The notes under the pieces are model-generated. The model worked only from the letters and a program-made list of their open reading frames with translations, was not told the origin of the DNA and ran no database searches. From NCBI GenBank assembly GCA_041697335.1, contig JBGUGD010000016.1, positions 128,001-192,000 of the forward strand: a stretch of 64,000 bases of DNA. The letters are read 5' to 3'. Both the position numbers and the translations under genes were made by a program. Origin of the DNA: Vampirovibrionaceae bacterium NZW_1234. GTDB taxonomy: Bacteria > Cyanobacteriota > Vampirovibrionia > Vampirovibrionales > JAGQHJ01. Shown piece after piece: positions 7,698-60,404 of the stretch (position 1 is its first letter; every line of letters starts with the position of its first letter).

Positions 7698-8474
7698 GTG
7701 GATATTACCTCTCTGATCGGACTCATTTTTGGCATTGCGGCCGTTATCGGTGGTCAAATTCTGGAAGGCGGCAGTGTGATGGCCATCGTCCAGCCGACAG
7801 CTTTCCTCATCGTTATGGGTGGAACCGTGGGCGCGGTCCTTTTAAGTTTTCCCGGCAAAGACCTGATGAATGCCGTCAAAGGTCTAAAAGCCGTCTTTTT
7901 GGGTGCAGGTGGCAATTTCAAGGAAACCATTGATCTGCTGGTTAATTTAGCCTTGAAAGCCCGTAAAGAAGGTATCCTCGCACTGCAAGCCGAGATCAAA
8001 GACATTGATGATGTGTTTTTGAAGAAGGGCATGGAGTTGATGACGGATGGGACAGATCCAGCTCTTGTACGGGATATTTTAGAAACGGAATTATCCTTTC
8101 TTGAAGAAGAAGTACAGTCCGCCTCCAAGGTATTCGAGTCTGCGGGCGGCTTTGCTCCCACCGTAGGCATTCTTGGGGCCGTCTTAGGCTTAATTCACGT
8201 TATGGAAAACCTTTCCGATCCCAGCAAGTTGGGATCAGGCATTGCCGTTGCGTTTGTGGCAACCGTCTATGGGGTAGGATTTGCTAATCTGATCTTTATC
8301 CCCATGGGGAACAAACTCAAATTCAATATGCGAAAGTTTATTGTGATGCGGGAAATGATGATCGAAGGGATTCTCTCAATTCAAGCAGGAGAAAGCCCGA
8401 ACTTCATCCGGCAAAAACTCCAGGTGTTTGACGGCGGCGGAGAAGCCGGTGGCGAAGCCGCTGAGGCAGGCTAA
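7698..8474 (+). CDS. motA: flagellar motor stator protein MotA
   Basis: Motifs ARKEGILAL, GGFAPTVGILGAVLGLI and AFVATVYG. Confidence 0.96.
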   Translation: MDITSLIGLIFGIAAVIGGQILEGGSVMAIVQPTAFLIVMGGTVGAVLLSFPGKDLMNAVKGLKAVFLGAGGNFKETIDLLVNLALKARKEGILALQAEIKDIDDVFLKKGMELMTDGTDPALVRDILETELSFLEEEVQSASKVFESAGGFAPTVGILGAVLGLIHVMENLSDPSKLGSGIAVAFVATVYGVGFANLIFIPMGNKLKFNMRKFIVMREMMIEGILSIQAGESPNFIRQKLQVFDGGGEAGGEAAEAG

Positions 8475-8477
8475 GGC

Positions 8478-9695
8478 ATGGGGAAGAAGCACAAGCACCC
8501 CGAACACGAGAACCTTGAACGTTGGCTAGTCTCCTACGCCGACTTTATTACCCTGCTGTTTGCAACCTTTGTTGTTCTCTACGCATTGTCTCAGGCCGAT
8601 TTAGCAAAATTCAAACAGTTTTCTCAGTCCGTAAAGCAAGCCTTTTCACCAGCCAAAAGTATTATGCAAAACCCAGGTGGCGTGTTAAAAGGCAATCCCA
8701 ATGCCGGTATTCTGAAAGAAAGCGGCAATAGCATCCTGGACAAATTTGTTCCCAAGGATCCGGGCGAAGGCGGGGGTAGCACAGAAGGTAAAGGGCAAGC
8801 AAAGAACCTCTTGGTGGAGACCATTAAGGAAATTAACCAGCAAGTTGAGGCGATGAACAAACAAAACACGGCTCAAAACGGTGAATCTATTGGTGCAAGC
8901 AGCATCAAGGTTCAGGAGCGAGGGGTCGTCATCAGTTTGTCTAGTGGCCTCTTCTTTGAGCCTGCCAGTGCAGGATTGAAACCAGCCTCGTTTAAAGTTT
9001 TAAATCAGCTCGCTGAGCTCCTGAAAAAGACACCGAACATCATCCATGTTGAAGGTCATACTGATAACCAACCCATGACCTCCGCTATTTATCCCTCGAA
9101 CTGGGAATTATCCACAGCTCGTGCAAGCAGCGTGGTGCGCTATTTTATCAGTCGTCATGGAGTCCCGCCAGAGAGAATTGCTGCAGTTGGGTATGGCGAT
9201 ACCCGACCCATTGCCGACAACACTTCCCGTGAAGGCCGGCAAAAGAACCGTCGAGTAGATATCGTCATTCTTTCCTCGAGCGCAAGCAGTACGGCAGATG
9301 CAGGGGTTGCCCAAACCTCGGAACAGAACGTCATCCTAAACCATGAAAGCCAGGGCCCCTCCGCTTCTGATCATCCAGAACATTCACAGCACTTGCCTGA
9401 AGCTCACAAGCCTGCTGCAAAACCCGAACATGCCAAACCATCCGGTCAGATCCACACTGCTCCTTCAAGCTTTTCGACTCACACCCCGCAAGAACCAGCG
9501 AAAGAGTCTCATGAAGCTAAGGAGGAGAGCCCTGCCAAGCCGAATAGTATAAACATCATTCCTGAGAAACCCAACATCTTTAGAAGCAAACCCGATACCG
9601 CACCCATGCAAGAAAAACCCAACAAGGGCCGCTCGCGTATCCGGTTTTCAGACGAACCCAGCAGCCGGTCTGATCATACTCAAGCCATGCATTAA
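8478..9695 (+). CDS. motB: flagellar motor protein MotB with a long low-complexity C-terminal tail
   Basis: Motif WLVSYADFITLL plus an OmpA domain (EGHTDN, NWELSTARA, NRRV). Confidence 0.95.
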   Translation: MGKKHKHPEHENLERWLVSYADFITLLFATFVVLYALSQADLAKFKQFSQSVKQAFSPAKSIMQNPGGVLKGNPNAGILKESGNSILDKFVPKDPGEGGGSTEGKGQAKNLLVETIKEINQQVEAMNKQNTAQNGESIGASSIKVQERGVVISLSSGLFFEPASAGLKPASFKVLNQLAELLKKTPNIIHVEGHTDNQPMTSAIYPSNWELSTARASSVVRYFISRHGVPPERIAAVGYGDTRPIADNTSREGRQKNRRVDIVILSSSASSTADAGVAQTSEQNVILNHESQGPSASDHPEHSQHLPEAHKPAAKPEHAKPSGQIHTAPSSFSTHTPQEPAKESHEAKEESPAKPNSINIIPEKPNIFRSKPDTAPMQEKPNKGRSRIRFSDEPSSRSDHTQAMH

Positions 9696-47495: not shown

Positions 47496-48179
47496 CTAAA
47501 TGACTGAGGGATAATTAAACCCTTGACGCTGTAACCAATCTTGGATGCCACCACCAGCACCCCCACTCCAGGGATTGCTATCAAAATTATTCTGAGCCCG
47601 CCATTGATTCATACCCATCCCGGCCCAAGCGGGTTGAGCACCCATCATGCTATTGGCAGGCATTTGGGCTGCCATAGAATTATCTAAACCTTGACCAGGT
47701 AAGCTCATGCCATTAGACGCCATCCAGTTTGGCATCCCACCACCAACGCCCCCACTCCAGGGATTGCGATCAAAATTATTCTGAGCCCGCCATTGATTCA
47801 TACCACCTGGCCCCCCTTGCCAGGATGAAGCAGCGTTCATCGACATAGCAGCATCAGAAGCCAATGGACTCATCATAGGACCGGCAATCTCATCTGTGGG
47901 AAAAAACATTCCGTTAGCCTGCGCCATATTATTCATAGCCAACGGATTACCTTGCAACTCACGGAACTTCGCCATACCCATTCCCGCCCAAGGAGCGCCG
48001 GAGCCGGTTGTGAAAGAATCATCTGGGATTTGAGAGGCCTGAGAAGCTATCGAACCAACAGTGCTGAGCACACTTTGCTGAATATTTTGCGCCATGCTGG
48101 CCACATCGGGCCGCATCATCATACCCGCACGTCCTCGATTCATCTCATTACCCATTGCTAGCATATCTGTGCTCCACAC
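47496..48179 (-). CDS. Met/Gly/Asn/Gln-rich low-complexity protein with an internal repeat
   Basis: 227-aa ORF containing MNQWRAQNNFD[RS]NPWSGG twice. The start is uncertain (GTG 48179 or a downstream ATG). Confidence 0.7.
   Translation of the reverse strand: MWSTDMLAMGNEMNRGRAGMMMRPDVASMAQNIQQSVLSTVGSIASQASQIPDDSFTTGSGAPWAGMGMAKFRELQGNPLAMNNMAQANGMFFPTDEIAGPMMSPLASDAAMSMNAASSWQGGPGGMNQWRAQNNFDRNPWSGGVGGGMPNWMASNGMSLPGQGLDNSMAAQMPANSMMGAQPAWAGMGMNQWRAQNNFDSNPWSGGAGGGIQDWLQRQGFNYPSVI
47561..47804. repeat. 55-bp direct repeat (47561-47615 and 47750-47804, one mismatch) within the CDS
   Basis: Read directly from the sequence. The 189-bp offset keeps the reading frame. Confidence 0.9.
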
Positions 48180-48296
48180 GTTTGTTGCTCTCTATATCAA
48201 CAAAAACATGGAAATCTAACTTATTTCCTATTTATATCTATATATTTATCTTTGTAAACAGAAGAGTCCGTCTTTAACGCCTATCAGTCCCAAGCA

Positions 48297-48352: not shown

Positions 48353-50989
48353 TTAGGAATCCCGATGCGCTAAAGCGTGGAAGCCCATTTGACCTTTATC
48401 AGGATCGTGATCTTCCTTCTGCATTGCTGCCAGCTCCGCTTCCAGGGCCGACTGAGTCACCACAGGCAAGGCGGCAACTAATTTATCCAAATCCGGTTCA
48501 GCGTGCTGGCTATACTCCTCCAATAAGGACGCCATGGGAGCAAGTGTTTTGTTGATGGCCCGCTGTAAGAGCATCGCGAGGTCACGACCCACAAAGCCTT
48601 CTGCCTTTTTGGCCACGGTCTCGAATTGAATGTCTGGGCTGAAGGGATAGCCGGAACGCTTGGCGTGTTGGGCCAGAATCTGGGTTTTTTGCTCTAAGTT
48701 GGGCGCTTTAAACCGGACTTGCTTGATCTGTCGGCTCTTTAAGGCTTTATCCAAAAGTTCCGGCATATTGGTGGAAACAATGGTGGTAACACCTTCACGC
48801 TCGGCAAAACCATCCAGTTCAACCAGAATCTGGTTCAAGGTGCTTTCGACTTCTTGCCCACCGTCACTGGCCCCGACACGCTGTTGCGCAACCGAGTCCA
48901 CTTCGTCCAGGAAGATAATTGAAGGGCCGTTTTCATAGGCATCTCGGAAGATATCACGGACCTTTTGGGCCCCTTCGCCCAAATACATTTTGCGAAGTTC
49001 CACCGCACTCAAGGGAATAAAGTTCACCCCGACTTCATTGGCAAAAGCTCTTGCGGTAAAGGTCTTCCCAGTTCCAGGATCACCCACAAAGGACATTAAT
49101 TTGGGCATATCAATTCGGATATTTTTCTTCTGACGAAGCTCTTGCCGCAATTGAGAACTTCTGGCCAGTGCTGCGAGGGTTCTCAACTCAGTAACCGCTT
49201 CCTCTTGGCCCACCACCGCATCCAGTTTCAACGTCGGATCCGGCTTGAATTTAAAGCCTTTCCCATCCTTGCCTCCAGTTGCAGACAAGAGATCCTGGAT
49301 ATAAGACTGACGCTGTGAATCGAATTGGGTCACAAAGTCAGATGTAATAACAAACACGCCTTCGTCCTGGTGCCGTCCCTCAGCACCCTGGTTCAGTGCT
49401 TGCGCTTTCTTTGCGGCTTGAGAGGCAACCTTATCCATCATACTGATCATGTGATCCCGGCTGGGTGCACGGCCGGAAGATTGCATCAGGGTTTTGGCAA
49501 TCATCGTTACAGCATCGTCTTCAAAGCGAACCTTATATTCTTTTTCCAGGTCTTCGCGCAGACTTTGTCCCGAGAGCCGGAAATTCATCAGAGCTTCAGA
49601 CAGAGTCGGGGGTTTTAATTTGATAATAGCCGCAGAATCTTGAATTCCACCGTCTATGTTGGCAGCAAGTGCCTCCATACCACCTACCACCAGCTTAACA
49701 TTAGGAAATGCTTTGGCCAGTCGACCCAATTGGTTAAATAACGGCACTTGAGATTCATCCGCCAGAATAAAAAGCAAGGCATTTTTGCCGATGGGGGTTT
49801 TCTGCTGAATTTCACTCATGGTTTTCTTCAAGGCTTTCAATACATCAGGCTTCTCAGCCGACATATAGGAAAAGGTGGTTCGGGTATTCACCTGTAGCCC
49901 TTCCCATTGATGGTGAAAGGCTTCATCAAAATCACTTTCAATGACAAAGCTATGGACGTTAGCCTGACCATTTACGTCTTTGTCCATTTGCGGATTAACC
50001 GCCATTTGAGCAATCAAGCTACGTTGATCATCGACATGCCCCAATATAAACCCGGGCCGGGGCGCGCGTTCAAACCGATATATCCGGTGATAAACGGCAT
50101 CGGCAGCCTCCAAATTCATAAACTCCAGGGCTGGTACCATGGACTTGGTAACCACCGCTTTTTCTGGATTTACAGGTGTTTCTTTCTTCGAAGGCTCTGC
50201 TTTGTCTAGTTTCTTGGCCTTCGGTTTAAAGGCGGGTTCCGGAACTACCACTCTGTCTCTGACATACTTCTGAGTAATTCGCTCTGGCGCTTTCAAAAAC
50301 AAGCGACCAAAATGCATTAAGACATCATCATGCGGTGTTTTGGCTTGCTTCATAGCCACTGCACCCTGGAAAAGCGCACTATAAAGATGGTCAGACTCAA
50401 GTGGAGCATCCTGCCATTGGGCGGCACGATTTAAGCTCTTGAGCAAGGCTTTACGATCCGCATTCAAGGAATTCGGGCCTTGGTAGCGACTCAATTCCGC
50501 AAGGTTAATTTTTAAGGCACTAATGAGCTTGAGAAAATACTGATCAAAAGCTGCTAACATCCGGTTATCCAAGGCCGTCTTGGGCTCAGCCAAAGGCAAT
50601 GTCTTTTTTAAGTTATCACGGAAAGCCACCAGGGCCGGACGATTATTGGTCCGATCGTAATACGTCCATTGTTGAAGTTTCTTGAGCCAGGTTGGTCGAT
50701 TCTCATAGGCTAAAAACGTGCTGATGTCATGCATCAAATAGGTGCTAAAGCGACGTTGTTCAGGCCCTAACGCGTGCCATTGTTTTTTTAGTATAGGTCC
50801 TAAAGTATTGTCTGCCAGCACGGTCTGGGGTTTGCCTGCATCATGGGCAGGTTTACTCGTCCCAACCGAAACTGTGTCTTCAACTGCGTTTTGAGGCGGC
50901 TTGATCTGTGGATTGGCCTGAAATCGAATCTGACTCGACAAATTCAAAGCAGCAACATGTGTCGATAAAGTCCCAACCGGCATTGTCAT
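48353..50989 (-). CDS. AAA+ ATPase: FtsH/CDC48-type C-terminal module preceded by Clp-like remnants, no protease or TM domain
   Basis: Motifs GDPGTGKT, MYLGEG, IIFLDEVD, TLNQILVELDGF and STN.PELLD.AL. No HEXXH. Confidence 0.85.
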   Translation of the reverse strand: MTMPVGTLSTHVAALNLSSQIRFQANPQIKPPQNAVEDTVSVGTSKPAHDAGKPQTVLADNTLGPILKKQWHALGPEQRRFSTYLMHDISTFLAYENRPTWLKKLQQWTYYDRTNNRPALVAFRDNLKKTLPLAEPKTALDNRMLAAFDQYFLKLISALKINLAELSRYQGPNSLNADRKALLKSLNRAAQWQDAPLESDHLYSALFQGAVAMKQAKTPHDDVLMHFGRLFLKAPERITQKYVRDRVVVPEPAFKPKAKKLDKAEPSKKETPVNPEKAVVTKSMVPALEFMNLEAADAVYHRIYRFERAPRPGFILGHVDDQRSLIAQMAVNPQMDKDVNGQANVHSFVIESDFDEAFHHQWEGLQVNTRTTFSYMSAEKPDVLKALKKTMSEIQQKTPIGKNALLFILADESQVPLFNQLGRLAKAFPNVKLVVGGMEALAANIDGGIQDSAAIIKLKPPTLSEALMNFRLSGQSLREDLEKEYKVRFEDDAVTMIAKTLMQSSGRAPSRDHMISMMDKVASQAAKKAQALNQGAEGRHQDEGVFVITSDFVTQFDSQRQSYIQDLLSATGGKDGKGFKFKPDPTLKLDAVVGQEEAVTELRTLAALARSSQLRQELRQKKNIRIDMPKLMSFVGDPGTGKTFTARAFANEVGVNFIPLSAVELRKMYLGEGAQKVRDIFRDAYENGPSIIFLDEVDSVAQQRVGASDGGQEVESTLNQILVELDGFAEREGVTTIVSTNMPELLDKALKSRQIKQVRFKAPNLEQKTQILAQHAKRSGYPFSPDIQFETVAKKAEGFVGRDLAMLLQRAINKTLAPMASLLEEYSQHAEPDLDKLVAALPVVTQSALEAELAAMQKEDHDPDKGQMGFHALAHRDS

Positions 50990-51146: not shown

Positions 51147-52055
51147 CTACGCCCCCAACTGCAAGGCTATTTGGCTGGCAGAGGATTGCAAGGCCGGAGG
51201 TACAAACAACGCTAGAACTTCAGAAGCTTTCTCTCGCTTATCGCCTTTGCAACTAATAAAGCGCTGAACCGATAAGGAAATTTGGCAGGCTGGGGCGTAC
51301 CAATGTCGAGTCAATGACGTGTCGTGATTGGAAATGACCACAATAACACCTTGCTGTGACAAGGCAATTGCCGTCTCAGCTAACTGTACTTGCTGGTCCT
51401 GGCTAAACCCTCCGGCACTGTAGCTGGTAAAATTTGCAGTGGAAGATAAAGGAACATAGGGCGGATCACAATAAACCACATCACCGGCTCGGGCTTGGGC
51501 CATCACGCTCAAAAAATCCATGTGCTGCCACGTTACCGATACCCGCTGGACTTTGTGATAAAACGCCAACATCTCCCGCTCGGGGAAATAAGGTTTCGTA
51601 TAACGGCCAAAGGGGACATTAAACCCCGCTCGACTATTATAACGGCACAACCCATTAAACCCATGGCGATTGAGGTAGACAAAAGCCATCGCACGAAAAT
51701 AGCTTTCGGAACTTTCATTGAAAGCATCCCGAAGTGAGTAATAGCCTTCCGGCGTGTTGTTTTGTGGTGTAAACAACGTTTTACAATCCTGGATAAAGGC
51801 TGTTCCATGAGTGGCTAAAGTCTGGTAAAGCCCTATCAAATCTTGATTGCTGTCGTTCAATATGTAGCGGGAATAGGGTGTATTCATAAATACAGCCCCA
51901 GACCCTACAAAAGGTTCAATCAAGCGGGAAGTTTCCGGCCATTTGCCTAACGCATGCTGTAGGGCAGAAACAATCCTGAATTTATTGCCCGCCCATTTTA
52001 AAAACGGTCTCTCTAACGGTTCATCCACAGCTATCTTTGCTGGATGGAGCGCCAT
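51147..52055 (-). CDS. dam: Dam-family DNA adenine methyltransferase
   Basis: Motifs FLKWAGNK, EPFVGSG, YLNRHGFNGLCRYN..FNVPFG and YCDPPY. Confidence 0.93.
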   Translation of the reverse strand: MALHPAKIAVDEPLERPFLKWAGNKFRIVSALQHALGKWPETSRLIEPFVGSGAVFMNTPYSRYILNDSNQDLIGLYQTLATHGTAFIQDCKTLFTPQNNTPEGYYSLRDAFNESSESYFRAMAFVYLNRHGFNGLCRYNSRAGFNVPFGRYTKPYFPEREMLAFYHKVQRVSVTWQHMDFLSVMAQARAGDVVYCDPPYVPLSSTANFTSYSAGGFSQDQQVQLAETAIALSQQGVIVVISNHDTSLTRHWYAPACQISLSVQRFISCKGDKREKASEVLALFVPPALQSSASQIALQLGA

Positions 52056-52207: not shown

Positions 52208-52537
52208 CTATTGTCGAGTGCCGAACTCTTCTTGTGCGGCTTTTTGGGCTTTTTGTGATTGTTCTTGCTCTTCCTTGTGAATCGCCTCTTGGCGAAGCTG
52301 CAGACTACGCATACGGGTATCCAGCAGTTTTTCCGCTTCATTTAACTGGCGGATCCTGGCTTCCAACATCTTGTCGGCCTTGGTACCAGGCTCATATTCC
52401 ACCTTCAAGTTCATAAAGGTACTGACTGCTTTCGCCAGATAATGCTTATGCTGCATCAAGAATTGCATCTGAAGATCCAAATCGTACTTCATTGCAATGA
52501 GCATCATTAATCTAGGTTGACTGGATGCGAAAGGCAT
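52208..52537 (-). CDS. hypothetical coiled-coil protein (N-terminal ASSQxRL motif)
   Basis: 109-aa helical ORF with GGGGG upstream. Confidence 0.7.
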   Translation of the reverse strand: MPFASSQPRLMMLIAMKYDLDLQMQFLMQHKHYLAKAVSTFMNLKVEYEPGTKADKMLEARIRQLNEAEKLLDTRMRSLQLRQEAIHKEEQEQSQKAQKAAQEEFGTRQ

Positions 52538-52628
52538 TTATTGCGTTCCCCCAAATACCCCTTGGTTATATAAAACCCCGTTCTACCAGTTTTATGACAA
52601 ATTATTAACAAATATTTAAGAGTTGGCG

Positions 52629-54020: not shown

Positions 54021-54049
54021 AAAAAACCCGCTGATTTCTCAGCGGGTTT
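54021..54049 (-). terminator. intrinsic terminator
   Basis: AAACCCGCTGA/TCAGCGGGTTT stem with a U-tract on the minus strand after the 54068 stop. Confidence 0.8.
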
Positions 54050-54067
54050 AATTCTGTACCTGGGTAA

Positions 54068-55804
54068 TTATTTACGAACCACCATGGTACTGCTGACAGG
54101 ACGCGGGGTCTGGTTGTTGCCACCACCTCCGGAAATCGTACCCTGTGGAGAGGTTTTAAGGGTTTGGACCCGATCGTTCACCGCCTGCTGGGTCTGGTTA
54201 ATGACCGTTTGGGTGTTGAGCGGTTGCGTGCCTGTATTTTGCATCACAATAGGACGAGTCGTCACCTGATTTGTTGGCTGGGTTGAGACAGGATTAATGG
54301 GCCGAACACCACCGGTAACCGTGGTAGTCTGAGTAACGGTCCCACCTACACCGGTTTGACCTGTGGTCTGGGTACCCATACCTGTTGGATTAATGACAGT
54401 CGTGGTGGTTCCCACACCGGTTTGTTGTCCGGTGGTTTGGGTTCCTACGCCGGCTTGCTGACCCGTGGTTTGAGTACCAACTCCAGTTGTGGCTCCCACA
54501 CCGGTCTGCTGACCCGTGGTTTGAGTACCGACTCCCGTTGTGGCTCCCACGCCGGTCTGTTGCCCGGTGGTTTGGGTTCCTACGCCGGTATTGTTACCAA
54601 CGGTTGTTGTGGTTGTACCAATACCATTCTGAGTTGTCACTTGAGTACCGTTACCACCACCTTGAGTGGTTACCTGACCATTGTTGGGATCCACCTGAGT
54701 TTGCGTGTTGTTATTCTGGTTCAGATTGGCCAAAGTGGTATTGATTTGATTCAAGGTTTGTTGAATCTGAGCCTGAAGAGCGGGATCGGTACCTTGGGTT
54801 GCTGTGGTTGTATTGTTTCCGGTCCCTTGGGTAACACCGTTACCATTGGTGTTTGTCACCGTGGTTCCTTGGGTGTTGGTAGTGGTTCCATTCCCTTGGG
54901 TAACTCCATTACCATTAGTGTTTGTCACCGTGGTTCCTTGAGTACCACCGGTACCGGCGCCATTGGTTGCTGGCTGCTGAGGCTTATCCTTCTCAGCTTT
55001 CAGCTTGGCCACTTCCTCGGTCAGTTTGGCAATGGTTTCAGACATCTGTTTTATCATTTCAGCCAACTGATTATCGGCCGCAGGTTGATTGCCCTGACCG
55101 CCTTGGGTTGTTGCAGTGGTAGCGGTAAAGGTTGTATCACCGGTTTGGCCTACTTGATTAGCACCACCATTCGGGGCAGCTGTGCCCGCTTGAGCATCTG
55201 TCTTGGGCTTATCTTTTTGATCTGCATCAACCTTAGCATCTTCTTTATCTTGCTTTTGTTGCTCCAAGACAGTACTAATCAGTTTTGTAAACATGGCTAT
55301 GCTTGCAGTGTCATTGGCTGGAGAAGCTTGAGGTGCAACTGTTCTTTCGAACTCTTCCTGTCGAGCATCGGCACCGAAGATATTGCTAAGCAAACTGAGA
55401 CTTGCCAAATCAGGACCAACGCCAAGAGGCGAAGCACTTAAGAGAGGATTCTCTAAAGCAAGTGCAGGAAGACCAATAGCGCCGGTACCAAAAGAGGTGC
55501 CTAAAAGACCAATGTCATTCAAGCTTTGGTTAAGCAGCGGGCTCGAAAGCAAAGGAGACGCTGCGATTGGCGCAGAAGCTGAATAGTCAAGGGCATAAAT
55601 TGGAACGGCCACTACCGGGCTCTGAACCTGGGGTAAACTACCCCACATTGCTGCAGAACCATAAGCGCTGGGCCAAAATGTACCTTGAGAACCTACTGAA
55701 AAATTGGGGTTCGAATTTGACGTAAAAACACTGTTGTCAATAAATCCGGAATCCCCGTAAAACCCAAAGGGCATTGAGGATACACCACCAATACTGTAAC
55801 TCAT
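54068..55804 (-). CDS. Gly/Thr/Gln-rich repetitive low-complexity protein
   Basis: 578 aa, no Cys seen. Contains GVGTQTTGQQTGVGATT and TQGTTVTNTNGNGVTQG repeats. AGGAG RBS and its own terminator. Confidence 0.8.
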   Translation of the reverse strand: MSYSIGGVSSMPFGFYGDSGFIDNSVFTSNSNPNFSVGSQGTFWPSAYGSAAMWGSLPQVQSPVVAVPIYALDYSASAPIAASPLLSSPLLNQSLNDIGLLGTSFGTGAIGLPALALENPLLSASPLGVGPDLASLSLLSNIFGADARQEEFERTVAPQASPANDTASIAMFTKLISTVLEQQKQDKEDAKVDADQKDKPKTDAQAGTAAPNGGANQVGQTGDTTFTATTATTQGGQGNQPAADNQLAEMIKQMSETIAKLTEEVAKLKAEKDKPQQPATNGAGTGGTQGTTVTNTNGNGVTQGNGTTTNTQGTTVTNTNGNGVTQGTGNNTTTATQGTDPALQAQIQQTLNQINTTLANLNQNNNTQTQVDPNNGQVTTQGGGNGTQVTTQNGIGTTTTTVGNNTGVGTQTTGQQTGVGATTGVGTQTTGQQTGVGATTGVGTQTTGQQAGVGTQTTGQQTGVGTTTTVINPTGMGTQTTGQTGVGGTVTQTTTVTGGVRPINPVSTQPTNQVTTRPIVMQNTGTQPLNTQTVINQTQQAVNDRVQTLKTSPQGTISGGGGNNQTPRPVSSTMVVRK

Positions 55805-55807
55805 GGA

Positions 55808-55936
55808 CGAAAACTCCTAACTCAATAACTCCGAAACTCCCTTGTTTTCAGGGAGTGAGACAACACATCCTATTTATTCTTATATGCATAAAAACAATCA
55901 TTAAGATTTTATTGATGCATTCTAACAATTTGTAAC
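55808..55936 (-). promoter_or_regulatory. shared upstream cassette, copy A
   Basis: Minus strand: GTTACAAA-TT-GTTAGAAT (55919-55936), TTGTTTTTAT (55888-55897), GAGTTAGGAGTTTTCG (55808-55823). Confidence 0.7.
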
Positions 55937-56165
55937 AAGCAAGATACTAAAAGGCGTCATCGTCCAAATAGCAACATCGAGCTGCCAATAGGCGTCAAGA
56001 GAGATAATAGACTTCCAAAATTGCTGATTAACATCTATTCCAATTTCTGAATAATCATGCCCTGAATCACAGGGACATCGGCACTTCACTTCTTAAAGAC
56101 TACGGAATGATCCCAAGTCATCCAACACCCACATTTTTAGAGTGATAAAGACCCCTTGCATAAAG

Positions 56166-56193
56166 AAAAAGCCCGCCCACACGTGGACGGGTT
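56166..56193 (-). terminator. intrinsic terminator
   Basis: AACCCGTCCACGTGTGGGCGGGCTTTTT on the minus strand, about 170 nt after the 56360 stop. Confidence 0.65.
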
Positions 56194-56359
56194 AAACGTT
56201 AGATAGAGAGAGTTAGAGATGAAGCGATAGGGATAGTGAGTTGAAACATTGGATACATTTTCTAAAGTGTTCTCGCCAGTTCAACACCTATAGGCATCGC
56301 GGTTATTAAGCGAGAGATACACTTCGCAGGATACATGAATTTATAACGACGATATCGTT

Positions 56360-58174
56360 TTACTGATCAAAGGCCGTTTGTTTGATTTCATCAAAGCGAC
56401 TGCGAATATTCTTCTGCAAATCGTCAATGAAGGAACCCACATTCGCACCGAGGGTCGATGCCGGAGATGGCGTTGTAAAACCAGTCGGTTCAGAAGATTG
56501 GGCCTTAGGCTCAGTCGTCTTTTCCTCTTGTTTTGTTTCGACCTTGGGCGCAGGCTCTGTAACTTTAGCAATAACTTCTGCAACAGCTACTGGAGCACTT
56601 GCGACCTGACTTTTAACGTTATTTTCATTGGATGCCTCGGCCGTATTTTTATTGGTATTCTCAATAACCGGGGCACTTACGGACTGATTTTTATTATCGT
56701 TTTTACTGGATGCCTCGGCGGTGTTTTTGTTTGTACTATGAGCCACCGGGACATTGGTATTGCGATTATCGTTTTCGGATACCACTGTGGTTTCCGTATT
56801 CGTGGTAACCACAGGAATATTCGTATTCTCATTCTGACTAAACGTTGTGGCTTTTGCCTCAGACTGAGTCTGGTTCTTATTGGCATTTTCATTTTTGCTG
56901 ACAACGTTGGTTTCAGTCTTCGATTCGTTGACGACAACCGGCTTATTAATGTCTTTGTTATCATTTAAATTGACGTCCTTGTTGTCAACCACGACAACAG
57001 GTTTATTATCGTTCTGAACCGTGTTAACCTGAACCGGCTTATTATCATTATTATTGGTTGCCACAAACGAGGATTTATCTTCGTTATTGTTATTCACAAC
57101 AACCGTGGGCTTATTGTCGTTAGTCACCTTAATTTCAGGTTTCACTTCGATTTTCGGATCCACGTTTACAGTCACCGTCACGTTCGGGGTATTGGTAACC
57201 GTGTTTGTATTCGTGTCCTTATCCGTATTCACAAAGCTGGTTTGAGCACCAGGGCTCACAGCCACAGCCTTGGGGACTCCGGCAACTGGCGAGGTGAAGT
57301 AGTTATTAATGACATTATTATTTCCAGTAATCACCTGAACAATACTATCAGCTATATTTTCCAATTTGGTGGTTTCCACCGTATTGTTGTTGCCGTTCAC
57401 CGTGCTGGAGACAACAGTAGCAGCACTACTACCCCATCCCGTGGATGCGACAGCACTGGGCTGTTGTGTCGTCACAACCGTGGAACTACCGGGCCGAGGT
57501 TGAATTGCAATGGTAGAACTCGACTTTGAGGGTAAGATGCGTGATACTGGGGAAGGACGTGAAGAAATACCGTTACCGGGGCCTACACGACCATCACCAG
57601 GGCGACGTCGACTGGAACGATCATCGCCAAAATCAAATAAACTACCTAAGCCATCGCCTCCGGCCATCATCAGCATCATCATAATGAATGATAATAAACT
57701 GTTCTGCTGCCCTTGCGGTTGCGAAAGGGATGCAAAAGTGGGCGCATAATTTACATTATACTGAACCGGGGGAACACCGCTAAAGGAGGGTGCTTTTGGC
57801 TGTTGAGGAAATTGATAAAAATTATTGTATTGCGGAAAAGTATACGTGGGTTGCGAGTAGTTGTACTGGGGAAACGTATACGTGGGTTGCGAATAATTGT
57901 ATTGGGGATAGCTATATTGCGGAGAATAGCTATACTGGGGAGAATAGTTATAAGTCGTTTGTGGCGCATACGTATTATTAGGCGCATAGGTATAACTTTG
58001 CGCATACGTTGGGGAATAAGAATAGGCATTTGCGGAATACGCGTTCGCTTCATTTCCTCCGGTGCTCGGCCAAGCCATCTGCGGCGAACTAGGGTACGCT
58101 TGTTGCTGTACCGGTGCCGACTGCTGGCCACCTAGAAATGGCTGCTGTTGAGCAAAGCTGTAATTCGTCACCAT
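56360..58174 (-). CDS. Tyr/Gln-rich and Asn/Thr/Val-rich low-complexity protein
   Basis: 604 aa, no Cys seen. Contains PQYNYSQPTYTF repeats, an FIMMMLMM segment and NDNKP repeats. Confidence 0.8.
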   Translation of the reverse strand: MVTNYSFAQQQPFLGGQQSAPVQQQAYPSSPQMAWPSTGGNEANAYSANAYSYSPTYAQSYTYAPNNTYAPQTTYNYSPQYSYSPQYSYPQYNYSQPTYTFPQYNYSQPTYTFPQYNNFYQFPQQPKAPSFSGVPPVQYNVNYAPTFASLSQPQGQQNSLLSFIMMMLMMAGGDGLGSLFDFGDDRSSRRRPGDGRVGPGNGISSRPSPVSRILPSKSSSTIAIQPRPGSSTVVTTQQPSAVASTGWGSSAATVVSSTVNGNNNTVETTKLENIADSIVQVITGNNNVINNYFTSPVAGVPKAVAVSPGAQTSFVNTDKDTNTNTVTNTPNVTVTVNVDPKIEVKPEIKVTNDNKPTVVVNNNNEDKSSFVATNNNDNKPVQVNTVQNDNKPVVVVDNKDVNLNDNKDINKPVVVNESKTETNVVSKNENANKNQTQSEAKATTFSQNENTNIPVVTTNTETTVVSENDNRNTNVPVAHSTNKNTAEASSKNDNKNQSVSAPVIENTNKNTAEASNENNVKSQVASAPVAVAEVIAKVTEPAPKVETKQEEKTTEPKAQSSEPTGFTTPSPASTLGANVGSFIDDLQKNIRSRFDEIKQTAFDQ

Positions 58175-58178
58175 ATCA

Positions 58179-58278
58179 CGAAACTCCTAACTCTACGATG
58201 AAAAGAGAACATTAACTTCTTGTATTTATATAAAAACAATTATTTAATAATTGCTGATACTATGTTTCTATTTGTAAA
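58179..58278 (-). promoter_or_regulatory. shared upstream cassette, copy B
   Basis: Minus strand: TTTACAAA-TA-GAAACATA (58261-58278), TTGTTTTTATAT (58228-58239), CGTAGAGTTAGGAGTTTCG (58179-58197). Confidence 0.7.
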
Positions 58279-58366
58279 CGAAAATATTTAGATTTTATTA
58301 ATTCGGATAAGATAACGCTAATAGAGGCATACTGCTTTTTTAGCGTTTAATAAAAATGACAAAAAT

Positions 58367-58402
58367 AAAACAGATCTCTTGCATTGCGAAGAGATCTGTT
58401 TT
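58367..58402 (-). terminator. intrinsic terminator (14-bp stem)
   Basis: AAAACAGATCTCTT / AAGAGATCTGTTTT after the 58438 stop. Confidence 0.8.
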
Positions 58403-58437
58403 GAGTTTTATCCGCTTACAATCGGTGCTAACCTTGT

Positions 58438-59541
58438 CTAAGCCTCAAACTGCCGAAGCTTTTCATTGGTAGCACTTGTGAAGAGATCGTCATTGATAGT
58501 GTAATAATCGTTGACGGTTAGACCTGGAGCAAGGGCCCCTTCACCGGTTCGTTGATTGACTTTGGCCGGATCAATATCCTTAAAGACGATCGATCCGAGC
58601 AACCCTTCAGGCGGTTTATCAGGATCATAGCCTTCGGGAGCTTTAACACTGACATCAAAGTAATGTTTTCCGGCCGCAATCGTTCGCTTGATATCGCCAT
58701 CAAAGACATCGGTATCATAGACCATGGTTGCGGTTTCTTTATCCCATTTAACGGAATCATTACCATCGGTATACACTTCATCATCCTGAAGTTCACGAAC
58801 CACCTGGCCATCGTTATCAACCAAGACAGGTTTTTCGTCTATCCATTTGATGCGTGAGTTACCGATACGAACACCAATTTCTGCATAAACAGTTGGGTCT
58901 GGCTTTCCAGCACCACCATCGGCCCATTTGCCGAGCTTACCGTTAATCAGAATGTCATCGGTATCAACAATACTGGTGGTTTTTCCGGCCGGTGGGTGAA
59001 TATCCACTGTTTTACCGTTTGCCAGGACAAAGTGGGGATCACCCCATACTTTACCACCTTTACCCTTATCGATGGGCGGTTTTGGTTTCGGCGGCGGTGG
59101 TGGCGGCGGTGGTGGCGGCGGCGGTGGCGGGGGGGGTGGGGTCGGAACCGGCGGTTGAGGAACCGGCGGTGGACAAGGACAATAATCGTCATACTTAGAG
59201 TTATTGGCCTTTTTACCTTTAAAAATTTGCATTAATAACATCATCAACATAAACCCTTGGATACCATCACCACCAAAACCGAAGTCTTGGCTGGATTCCA
59301 CAGAAGGGTTGACGCCACCGATGGAACTGCCAAAGGCAGCACCACCAATAGCACCTAAGGGCTGATTGATAAACGTCACAGGGCTGCCACCCAATCCAAA
59401 GGTCGAACCAATGATGGGCCCAGATGAGATTAAATTATCCAATCCACCGTTCCACGAAGGTCTTGGCTGGGGCGCAAATGACATTGCGGATTGCAAGCCC
59501 GACTGCAAGCCAGATTGTAAAAATGGAAACAGACTATTCAT
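58438..59541 (-). CDS. polyproline protein with a GDPH (VWD-like) domain
   Basis: 17 consecutive Pro (59089-59139), then VWGDPHF and a later PEGLLG motif. Confidence 0.8.
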   Translation of the reverse strand: MNSLFPFLQSGLQSGLQSAMSFAPQPRPSWNGGLDNLISSGPIIGSTFGLGGSPVTFINQPLGAIGGAAFGSSIGGVNPSVESSQDFGFGGDGIQGFMLMMLLMQIFKGKKANNSKYDDYCPCPPPVPQPPVPTPPPPPPPPPPPPPPPPPKPKPPIDKGKGGKVWGDPHFVLANGKTVDIHPPAGKTTSIVDTDDILINGKLGKWADGGAGKPDPTVYAEIGVRIGNSRIKWIDEKPVLVDNDGQVVRELQDDEVYTDGNDSVKWDKETATMVYDTDVFDGDIKRTIAAGKHYFDVSVKAPEGYDPDKPPEGLLGSIVFKDIDPAKVNQRTGEGALAPGLTVNDYYTINDDLFTSATNEKLRQFEA

Positions 59542-59545
59542 AGGG

Positions 59546-59652
59546 CGAAACTCCTAACTCTACGGGAAAACACATCACGAAATGAGAGACTTACATACAA
59601 ATATAAAAACAACCATTTGAACGCGCTGTGACAGATTGTTTCCAAATGTTAA
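59546..59652 (-). promoter_or_regulatory. shared upstream cassette, copy C
   Basis: Minus strand: TTAACATT-TG-GAAACAAT (59635-59652), TTGTTTTTATAT (59601-59612), CGTAGAGTTAGGAGTTTCG (59546-59564). Confidence 0.7.
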
Positions 59653-60275: not shown

Positions 60276-60348
<73 letters not shown>

Positions 60349-60404
60349 CTATCAAAGTGTTCCCATTATAGTGGGAGATGATGAGGACGTCAAAACGTAG
60401 CCCA

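Follow-up and report, generated by a model that had tools for sequence, protein, structure and literature searches.

The stretch analysed here, called the window, covers 64,000 nt of the genome of Vampirovibrionaceae bacterium NZW_1234 (contig JBGUGD010000016.1, positions 128,001 to 192,000), and our subject is a group of three of its minus-strand genes, A, B and C, which code for low-complexity proteins. An earlier note, made from the letters alone, had taken them for a candidate new three-gene system of unrelated, co-regulated proteins exported without a Sec signal, possibly an attachment or fibre apparatus. Sequence comparisons suggest that a second flagellar-type machine encoded in this genome is a protein secretion system and that A, B and C are its cargo. 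All coordinates below are window positions unless a contig is named; C2, C8, C32 and the like denote contigs of the genome studied (G000), other G numbers genomes of relatives, and f numbers families.

54068..55804, minus strand: gene A, 578 amino acids (aa); Ser/Gly/aromatic N-terminus, amphipathic helices, Thr/Gly/Gln repeats
56360..58174, minus strand: gene B, 604 aa; Tyr/Gln/Pro repeats, Met-rich helix (160-170), Asn/Val/Thr repeats
58438..59541, minus strand: gene C, 367 aa; Gly/Ser/Phe N-terminus, Met-rich helix (97-107), polyproline linker, VWD-like domain
58441..59070, minus strand: cysteine-free domain of C, like the von Willebrand factor type D (VWD) domain, from profile and model comparison
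59032-59043, minus strand: GDPH candidate self-cleavage site of C (residues C167-170)
54024..54049, minus strand: intrinsic-terminator-like hairpin with T tail, 3′ of A
56172..56191, minus strand: intrinsic-terminator-like hairpin with T tail, 3′ of B
58367..58402, minus strand: hairpin with T tail, 3′ of C, terminator-like on both strands
55811..55823, minus strand: ribosome-binding stretch of A (GAGTTAGGAGTTT), common to A, B and C
58181..58193, minus strand: ribosome-binding stretch of B, common to A, B and C
59548..59560, minus strand: ribosome-binding stretch of C, common to A, B and C
55888..55916, minus strand: two-part promoter-like motif of A; -10-like box 55888-55897, -35-like box about 55910-55916; score 31
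58230..58258, minus strand: two-part promoter-like motif of B; score 30
59603..59631, minus strand: two-part promoter-like motif of C; score 25

The open reading frames and T-tailed hairpins confirm that each of the three same-strand genes has its own terminator; terminator-like sites number 23 in 8 kb, compared with 8.5 ± 3.2 in shuffled sequences. The claimed absence of a Sec signal holds by a crude charge/hydrophobicity rule. A and B contain no cysteine and C contains two, both outside the VWD-like domain. The helices quoted in the earlier note map to A169-183, B160-170 and C97-107, and are Met-rich, as it had stated, in B and C but not in A, whose helix holds a single Met. No Pfam or NCBIfam family matched A, B or C, and BLAST detected no paralogue of any of them in their own genome. 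The common upstream cassette was also recovered and consists of TTGTTTTTAT, located 63-91 nt before the ATG, plus the 13-nt ribosome-binding stretch GAGTTAGGAGTT. The 12-nt core of the latter occurs seven times in the 3.7-Mb genome, three of them at this locus, which hints at local duplication. A sigma-70 consensus scan revealed no excess of sites (9 versus 11.1).

A system of only three genes was not borne out, as the same cassette, in the form of the two-part promoter-like motif (CAA...TTGTTTTTAT), lies ahead of 144 genes of this genome. We called 3228 genes and scored the upstream region of each. With an iterated weight matrix, a score of at least 18 was reached in the sense orientation by 143 of the 3228 upstream regions, compared to 25 in antisense and 1-3 in three block-shuffled sets, although the sense count is partly circular because the matrix was trained on the same upstream regions. 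In an untrained count, TGTTTTTAT was found upstream in sense of 100 genes and in antisense of 18, compared to 6-15 for ten 9-mers of like make-up. In 64 of 105 upstream sites a CA dinucleotide stands 19 nt ahead of the G, a peak that gives the motif a -35/-10-like two-part shape. Genome-wide, 272 sites score at least 16 and only three of these lie inside called genes. The motif splits into two subclasses in this genome (27/31 versus 15/113, Fisher P about 1e-14). Readings of the motif as a sigma-54 or canonical sigma-28 promoter were rejected on spacing and sequence against the textbook consensus; the nine canonical sigma-28 sites found in the genome mark other genes.

Most of the proteins encoded behind the motif lack a signal, are poor in cysteine and match no known family. 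By the same crude rule, signal-like N-termini occur in 3 of 118 regulon proteins versus 336 of 2862 other proteins, and proteins devoid of cysteine in 80/118 versus 621/2862; residues N, G, Q, S and P are enriched. A Leu/Met-rich helix is also enriched, yet remains a minority trait (7/102 regulon proteins versus 24/2232 others). A Pfam scan covered 118 of the 144 motif-led proteins plus two related genes (120 in total) and left 100 without a family. The 20 matches include EF-hand proteins (4), C39 peptidases (3), collagen (2), a microviridin-type precursor, pentapeptide repeats, a coiled coil, thioredoxin, an M16 peptidase, GGDEF, a cyclase, three DNA-binding regulators and one of the two sigma factors described below (sigma2b). 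None of the scanned proteins is ribosomal or central-metabolic, so the cassette does not belong to housekeeping genes, a possibility raised earlier, and the genome-wide scan that had been proposed yields a putative regulon of 144 genes. One further member lies in the window:

47496..48179, minus strand: motif-led gene of the same regulon; Met/Gly/Asn-rich, about 222-227 aa; motif at 48207, score 22

Multi-core microviridin-type precursors at G000:C30:129196-130406 and C28:12076-13371 (motif scores 23, 27 and 14) fall in the same regulon. Four paralogues at G000:C29:93156-96492 and C13:143070-143963, with motif scores of 7-20, combine C-terminal parts that are 72-87% identical with unrelated N-termini.

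Two sigma factors are candidate readers of the motif. sigma2a, a divergent sigma-28-like protein of 233 aa that was missed by the Pfam region-2 search, is encoded directly behind flhB2, the flhB gene of the second machine. Its 45%-identical paralogue sigma2b, on C16, is encoded behind a small motif-led gene, two genes after the motif site. Both score above the sigma-70 superfamily cut-off, and their best named subfamily is FliA/WhiG (TIGR02479), with 75.0 and 73.6 bits, respectively, versus a cut-off of 189.6. Counted on loci with 1.5-kb flanks, sigma2 lies directly behind flhB2 in 44 of 57. The two paralogues have the same region 2.4 and different regions 4.2, and the two motif subclasses match this pair. 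A strict motif pattern was found 59 times in this genome, 2-21 times in eight relatives of the same order, 35 and 43 times in f38, 0-7 times in f2 and 0-2 times elsewhere (controls 0-2). A second pattern occurs 2-14 times in 14/14 f2 genomes (controls 0-1), 13-22 times in f1 and f38, 0-12 times in f36 and f37, and 0-2 times in f3, f40, f41, f43, f39, f42 and the sister class. In exactly those families that are rich in the motif, sigma2a shows almost no variation in regions 2.4 and 4.2; in f3, f40, f41 and f43 the two regions differ. Among 20 f2 motif sites (14/14 from G215 and 6/10 from G021), 15 have an open reading frame starting 30-110 nt downstream, in many cases with a low-complexity N-terminus; four have one further away and one has none. 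We thus regard it as quite probable from the sequence data that the motif is a promoter read by sigma2a and sigma2b. A SigF-like factor on C28 was also considered and is an unlikely reader, being present at 47-54% identity in 5/5 motif-poor genomes.

The genome, which is 95% complete, contains two full FlhA genes. The copy on C2 scores above the FlhA cut-off, and the copy on C32 (FlhA2) above neither the FlhA nor the SctV cut-off. FlhA2 belongs to a cluster in the order flgF/G-flgB-flgC-transglycosylase-fliE-fliF-(385 aa, no family)-fliH-flhA-fliI. Further parts of this second set are a second fliO/P/Q/R with a fliM/N-like gene on C8, fliJ2, a weak fliK-like gene and a short flgE/F/G-like gene on C30, and flhB2 on C29; the C32 and C30 parts form a single cluster in G251. 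All parts score best as flagellar genes. No second FlgH, FlgI, FlgK, FlgD or FliG was found in this genome by phmmer. The 385-aa family-less protein (G000:C32:14371-15528) occupies FliG's place, and a 294-aa MgtE_N-like repeat protein encoded near fliPQR2 (G000:C8:61797-62681) may be a further C-ring part. The second set coexists here with a canonical flagellum, the genome encoding three flagellins and two motA genes (window 7698-9695 (+); G000:C4:11960), and may be used in common with it.

The second set resembles the flagellar FliA/sigma-28 system in having full FlhA and FlhB, FliP/Q/R/O/I/H/J/F/E and rod homologues, a FliA-like sigma factor beside flhB and late genes under a dedicated two-part promoter-like motif. 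It departs from it in that sigma2 scores 75 where the cut-off is 189.6, with regions 2.4 and 4.2 altered, in that the motif differs from TAAA-N15-GCCGATAA, and in lacking a dedicated flagellin, FlgK, FlgD, L/P rings and a clear FliG while being associated with about 140 non-flagellar genes. Homologues of the injectisome core sctJ/N/Q/R/S/T/U/V are present as the second FliF, FliI, FliM/N-like protein, FliP/Q/R, FlhB and FlhA. Like the injectisome (non-flagellar type III secretion system), the set comprises a type III export gate that in several lineages stands without motility parts, and its candidate substrates are signal-less, Cys-poor and of low complexity, one of them with a GDPH domain as in NopE/MIIA proteins. 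Unlike the injectisome, it keeps flgB, flgC and fliE, all in the C32 cluster, and has no linked secretin or SctF. As flgB, flgC and fliE are flagellum-specific markers in the excerpted text of PMC3459982, their retention and the missing secretin set this machine apart from injectisomes by the markers of that paper.

Among 70 class relatives examined, FlhA2-type genes were found in f36, f37, f38, f2, f3, f40, f41 and f43, and in none of ten f39 and two f42 genomes. In a 41-genome subset, sigma2 was detected in 32/32 genomes of the families with FlhA2, 31 of which have FlhA2 itself, and in 0/9 genomes of f39 and f42. Of the named records with 62-67% identity to FlhA2, most belong to Melainabacteria, Gastranaerophilales or 'Vampirovibrio sp.'; two of these cluster with f2. 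The same motif and machine also occur in non-flagellated gut-type relatives, which bears on the earlier note's tie to a pad for algal prey. No flagellin was found in 16/16 f2, f3 and f41 genomes tested, all of which have FlhA2 and sigma2, FlgI was missing in 4/4 flagellin-less genomes tested and MotA in 2/2 f2 genomes. In flagellin-less f2 genomes FlhA2 is intact and 63-65% identical, and the copy that is missing is the canonical FlhA; sigma2a is 55-67% identical in 99/99 f2 genomes. Flagellin-less f2 genomes also encode a second protein whose match to FlhA is confined to the cytoplasmic half (about 27%, in frames of about 490 aa; e.g., G003:C6:10721-11812).

These distributions bear on another explanation, which takes the second set for an additional flagellum, of lateral type or in decay, and the motif for the mark of an unrelated regulon for stress or stationary phase, made up of disordered proteins of the cytoplasm. 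Published accounts, as far as the excerpts go, interpret partial sets as flagellar loss and genome reduction (PMC4040986, with 'only a subset of genes', and PMC3787301, where MEL.A1 lacks filament, cap, junction and L/P rings). The gene list given for ACD20 in PMC3787301 follows the gene order of the second cluster and includes two flhA. The best scores of all parts as flagellar genes and the two MotA genes and three flagellins of this genome would also agree with a second flagellum. The conservation of FlhA2 and sigma2a where flagellin is absent and canonical FlhA gone already weakens this explanation, as do the missing FlgI and MotA there and the lack of a second FlgK, FlgD and FliG here, and we consider it very improbable. 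By its gene content, the second set of the flagellin-less lineages is not a working flagellum.

FlhA trees, which were quick or FastTree runs on subsets of 45, 110, 32 and 22 rows with five partial loci and most of the redundant f2 loci omitted, placed FlhA2 as a long-stemmed clade (Shimodaira-Hasegawa-like approximate likelihood ratio test (SH-aLRT) 100) outside SctV in all four cases. FastTree placed it between FlhA and SctV, and a sister relation of FlhA2 and SctV was not rejected by the approximately unbiased test (P = 0.34). The sister class, probably Sericytochromatia, has two full FlhA copies in 4/5 genomes, one of which joins FlhA2 under a mixture model (SH-aLRT 95-97). In the sister-class loci L196-L200 (G016, G004, G010, G046 and G100), the second FlhA clade has fliF or fliG close upstream, and several FlhA C-terminal fragments are present.

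A candidate filament subunit for the second machine was recognised in a family of short helical proteins with a member in the window:

52208..52537, minus strand: 109-aa helix-turn-helix hairpin family member, candidate filament subunit; weak motif at 52577, score 12.6

This family has 1-18 copies in 17/17 genomes of the motif-rich families and none in 30 others, and in G003 one of its genes lies about 5 kb from fliE2. The new motif precedes 15 of 21 hairpin copies and a canonical sigma-28 site one of 21. Structure modelling yielded a two-helix hairpin (predicted local distance difference test (pLDDT) 92) with, in most members, a central Pro-x-x-Pro turn, a feature of needle subunits. The top Foldseek row, an IpaB fragment (E 0.022), was set aside as a generic coiled coil.

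The C-terminal domain of C was identified as a VWD domain by profile and structure comparison. Relatives of C residues 158-367 are present in 24 of 48 genomes of the order, and phmmer on representatives found 58. A profile of 14 C-type sequences matches FCGBP at E 5.5e-23. Of the 14 aligned members, 11 match PF00094 at E ≤ 0.05; several homologues score above the cut-off and C itself gives no match. The model of the domain (pLDDT 90) matches mucin and VWF D domains with a Foldseek E of 3e-6, and VWF with a Z of 14.3 (root-mean-square deviation 2.7 Å over 157 residues). The top 19 rows of the structure comparison, at Z 8.9-14.3, are VWD-type by title (18 recognised and one pigment protein), and the next row has a Z of 4.5. 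GDPH is invariant in 14/14 aligned sequences, which were chosen by this motif. C has the fold and the GDPH site of the VWD proteins FCGBP, MUC2, MUC5AC, VWF and RGM, but is bacterial, lacks a signal peptide and carries a single, cysteine-free domain behind a polyproline linker. Membership in MIIA/DUF1521, the domain of NopE and VIC_001052 (PMC6506597, excerpt), was rejected in favour of VWD. C shares with it the GDPH site, an acidic domain (37 D/E versus 22 K/R) and a type III link, but only 1 of 58 homologues matches PF07481, below the cut-off, and C does not. GDPH sites of the type III-linked MIIA proteins self-cleave with Ca2+, and such domains occur in type III-secreted proteins (PMC6506597, in part). 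In the consulted portion of PMC8267560, the sites of FCGBP also self-cleave, the anhydride being hydrolysed and a cross-link unseen, and ITIH3 does cross-link. GDPH domains are further known from diatom adhesive proteins (bioRxiv 10.1101/2023.03.06.531300, excerpt). Two more proteins of this genome (G000:C14:20548-23436 and C23:2064-3887), unlinked to C by BLAST, contain two proline-linked WGDPH domains each, the first with a motif score of 15.

The VWD genes of relatives repeat the layout of C, with a low-complexity N-terminus, a Leu/Met helix, a Pro linker and a GDPH domain, the conserved part of the layout being the N-terminal low-complexity segment and the helix. The motif scores at least 18 at 12 of 17 such genes and 13-15 at three; two have none, one of these being cut by a contig end. 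In G306, which belongs to the same family as the genome studied, at least five motif-led or VWD genes, several of them with VWD, stand in tandem beside truB, and on another contig three more motif-led units lie beside a SIS-domain gene. These are the flanks found in this window, suggesting that the locus is a fast-changing array and making it doubtful that the three proteins are 'unrelated', as the earlier note had it; A and B are best seen as payload variants of this array. No homologue of A was found in 48 relatives of the order, and residues 1-280 gave no usable match in the ESM Atlas. Neither did B yield any, with the whole protein in five genomes or with its middle part in the 48 relatives. 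By eye the layout of B resembles that of a VWD protein of G308, but with a BLAST E of 0.30 this likeness was not counted. Harpins and translocators such as HrpZ, HrpN, HrpW and Hpa1 are Gly-rich, Cys-free, signal-less proteins with short Leu/Met-rich helices. The likeness of A, B and C to harpins is compositional only, with no Pfam or NCBIfam sequence match.

Among other features of the region, a tRNA gene that by eye is tRNA-Thr(CGT) lies just past the array (60278-60350 (-)), and a stand-alone Dam-like DNA adenine methyltransferase with an NPPY-type DPPY motif was recognised by eye at 51147-52055 (-). The tripeptide RFG occurs within residues 2-40 of 111/2489 proteins, compared to 17-18 in control windows, and of only 2/95 regulon proteins. 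These N-termini are Pro/Ser/Thr-rich (e.g., window 48353-50989 (-) and G000:C2:10943-13102), and RFQ/RFS-type variants are found on an AAA ATPase and a sigma-70-like protein. They are a possible second export or host-targeting signal.

The type III-like route present in the genome supports the earlier proposal that a co-regulated, signal-less set is probably exported without Sec. Also in favour of the second machine, VirB4 was not found in this 95%-complete genome, and its only two secretins lie, by their neighbours, in type IV pilus/type II secretion-like and Tad gene blocks. Several observations weigh against assigning A, B and C to that route. The most serious is the lack of a channel through the outer membrane: the second machine yielded no ring there, FlgH and FlgI having no second copy here and being absent from four flagellin-less genomes, so export may stop in the periplasm. 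FliA-family WhiG and FliF-like rings have been co-opted for sporulation, and the missing ring would suit an alternative in which sigma2 controls a real regulon for a developmental state (a cyst or resting-cell coat, or an envelope layer), the machine being a periplasmic translocator or channel and A, B and C coat proteins. Collagen-like, Pro/Tyr/Gly-rich and EF-hand proteins in the regulon are in line with a coat, and the two sigma paralogues, one of them behind the motif, look cascade-like. A secretin-less system of Myxococcales is likewise thought not to secrete outside the cell, according to the part of PMC3459982 drawn on here. However, rod, hook-like, FliK-like and FliJ genes are kept together with a lytic transglycosylase, which suggests an axial structure crossing the wall, and we know of no described spore in this class. 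VWD/GDPH domains also act extracellularly in the cited papers, as excerpted (PMC6506597, PMC8267560 and bioRxiv 10.1101/2023.03.06.531300). We judge a coat regulon rather unlikely.

The remaining points against the export reading concern the link between regulon and machine and the nature of the products. The genes of the second machine themselves carry no motif, and f3, f40, f41 and f43 have the machine without this motif. Since a single clade is marked alike by the motif, the conserved sigma residues and the hairpin family, the motif-rich families represent one evolutionary event and the co-occurrence is not independent evidence. Canonical FliA is kept in 4/5 flagellin-less genomes and, given the canonical sigma-28 site at one of the 21 hairpin genes, may share control. 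About 8 of the 120 scanned regulon proteins are regulators or ordinary enzymes, and comparison of the hairpin with needle proteins and flagellin (Pfam, PDB sequences, Foldseek) gave no match at E ≤ 0.001. A type I secretion adaptor is encoded in the genome (HlyD above the family cut-off), and VWD-domain relatives also sit in RTX/Ig adhesins. The last two observations, the presence of the machine without this motif in f3, f40, f41 and f43, and a co-occurrence that follows kinship would suit an alternative in which the regulon were real but its products left by another exit (type I secretion, the motility flagellum, vesicles or lysis), the link to the machine being the shared ancestry of one clade. 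No RTX family turned up for A, B and C or among the 120 proteins scanned, what is conserved in the layout of the VWD genes is the low-complexity N-terminal segment with its helix, sigma2 is physically tied to flhB2, and f2 genomes have the motif without a motility flagellum, all of which argues against another exit; we hold it to be unlikely.

Set against these alternatives, the reading of A, B and C as members of a set of about 140 late genes that serve a second type III export system, derived from the flagellum, in Vampirovibrionia has, from the sequence evidence, a probability slightly better than even. By analogy with flagellar class 3 proteins, it is reasonably probable that N-terminal signals direct the regulon products, in unfolded form, out through the second machine. 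As in the flagellar hierarchy, the basis of this analogy, the machine would be built first and sigma2a and sigma2b would then turn on the late genes, whose disordered, Cys-free products would thread the gate and assemble or fold outside. With somewhat less than an even chance, they may there build a contact or adhesive layer in which the hairpin would be the filament, A and B extended scaffold or harpin-like proteins joined via their short hydrophobic helices, and C a protein that folds and self-cleaves at Asp-Pro, so that its N-terminal half could be released or covalently tethered. The outcome without a cross-link in FCGBP counts against the tether (PMC8267560, excerpt).

We found no prior description of this system in the open-access literature, supplements lying outside that coverage. 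The pad and spike of V. chlorellavorus are 'of unknown composition' in the excerpt of PMC4451040, where the word 'fibril', the earlier note's term for the pad, occurs 0 times and type IV secretion is assigned by proposal. That assignment was made without experiment. Decay has been the usual interpretation of the 'partial flagellar gene sets' of gut Melainabacteria; the data point instead to a conserved second export machine that has sigma factors of its own, a promoter that can be read and a list of candidate substrates. They add a new case of flagella turning into secretion systems and offer a route to how a poorly cultured class contacts its hosts or prey. With the motif, substrates can also be predicted from genomes alone. 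More tentatively, and on the improbable side of our estimates, Vampirovibrionia including the gut Gastranaerophilales may hold a third ancient type III branch, in which the rod would be kept, flagellin replaced by a 109-aa hairpin filament, and a two-sigma cascade would control upwards of 100 secreted proteins, including VWD adhesins of mucin type that cleave themselves. If so, the machine would be the spike and pad of predatory Vampirovibrio, the 'non-motile' gut Melainabacteria would be host-contact secretors, and the branch would either have arisen by an independent conversion of a flagellum into an injector, in common with the sister class, or be a surviving early stage in the evolution of injectisomes.

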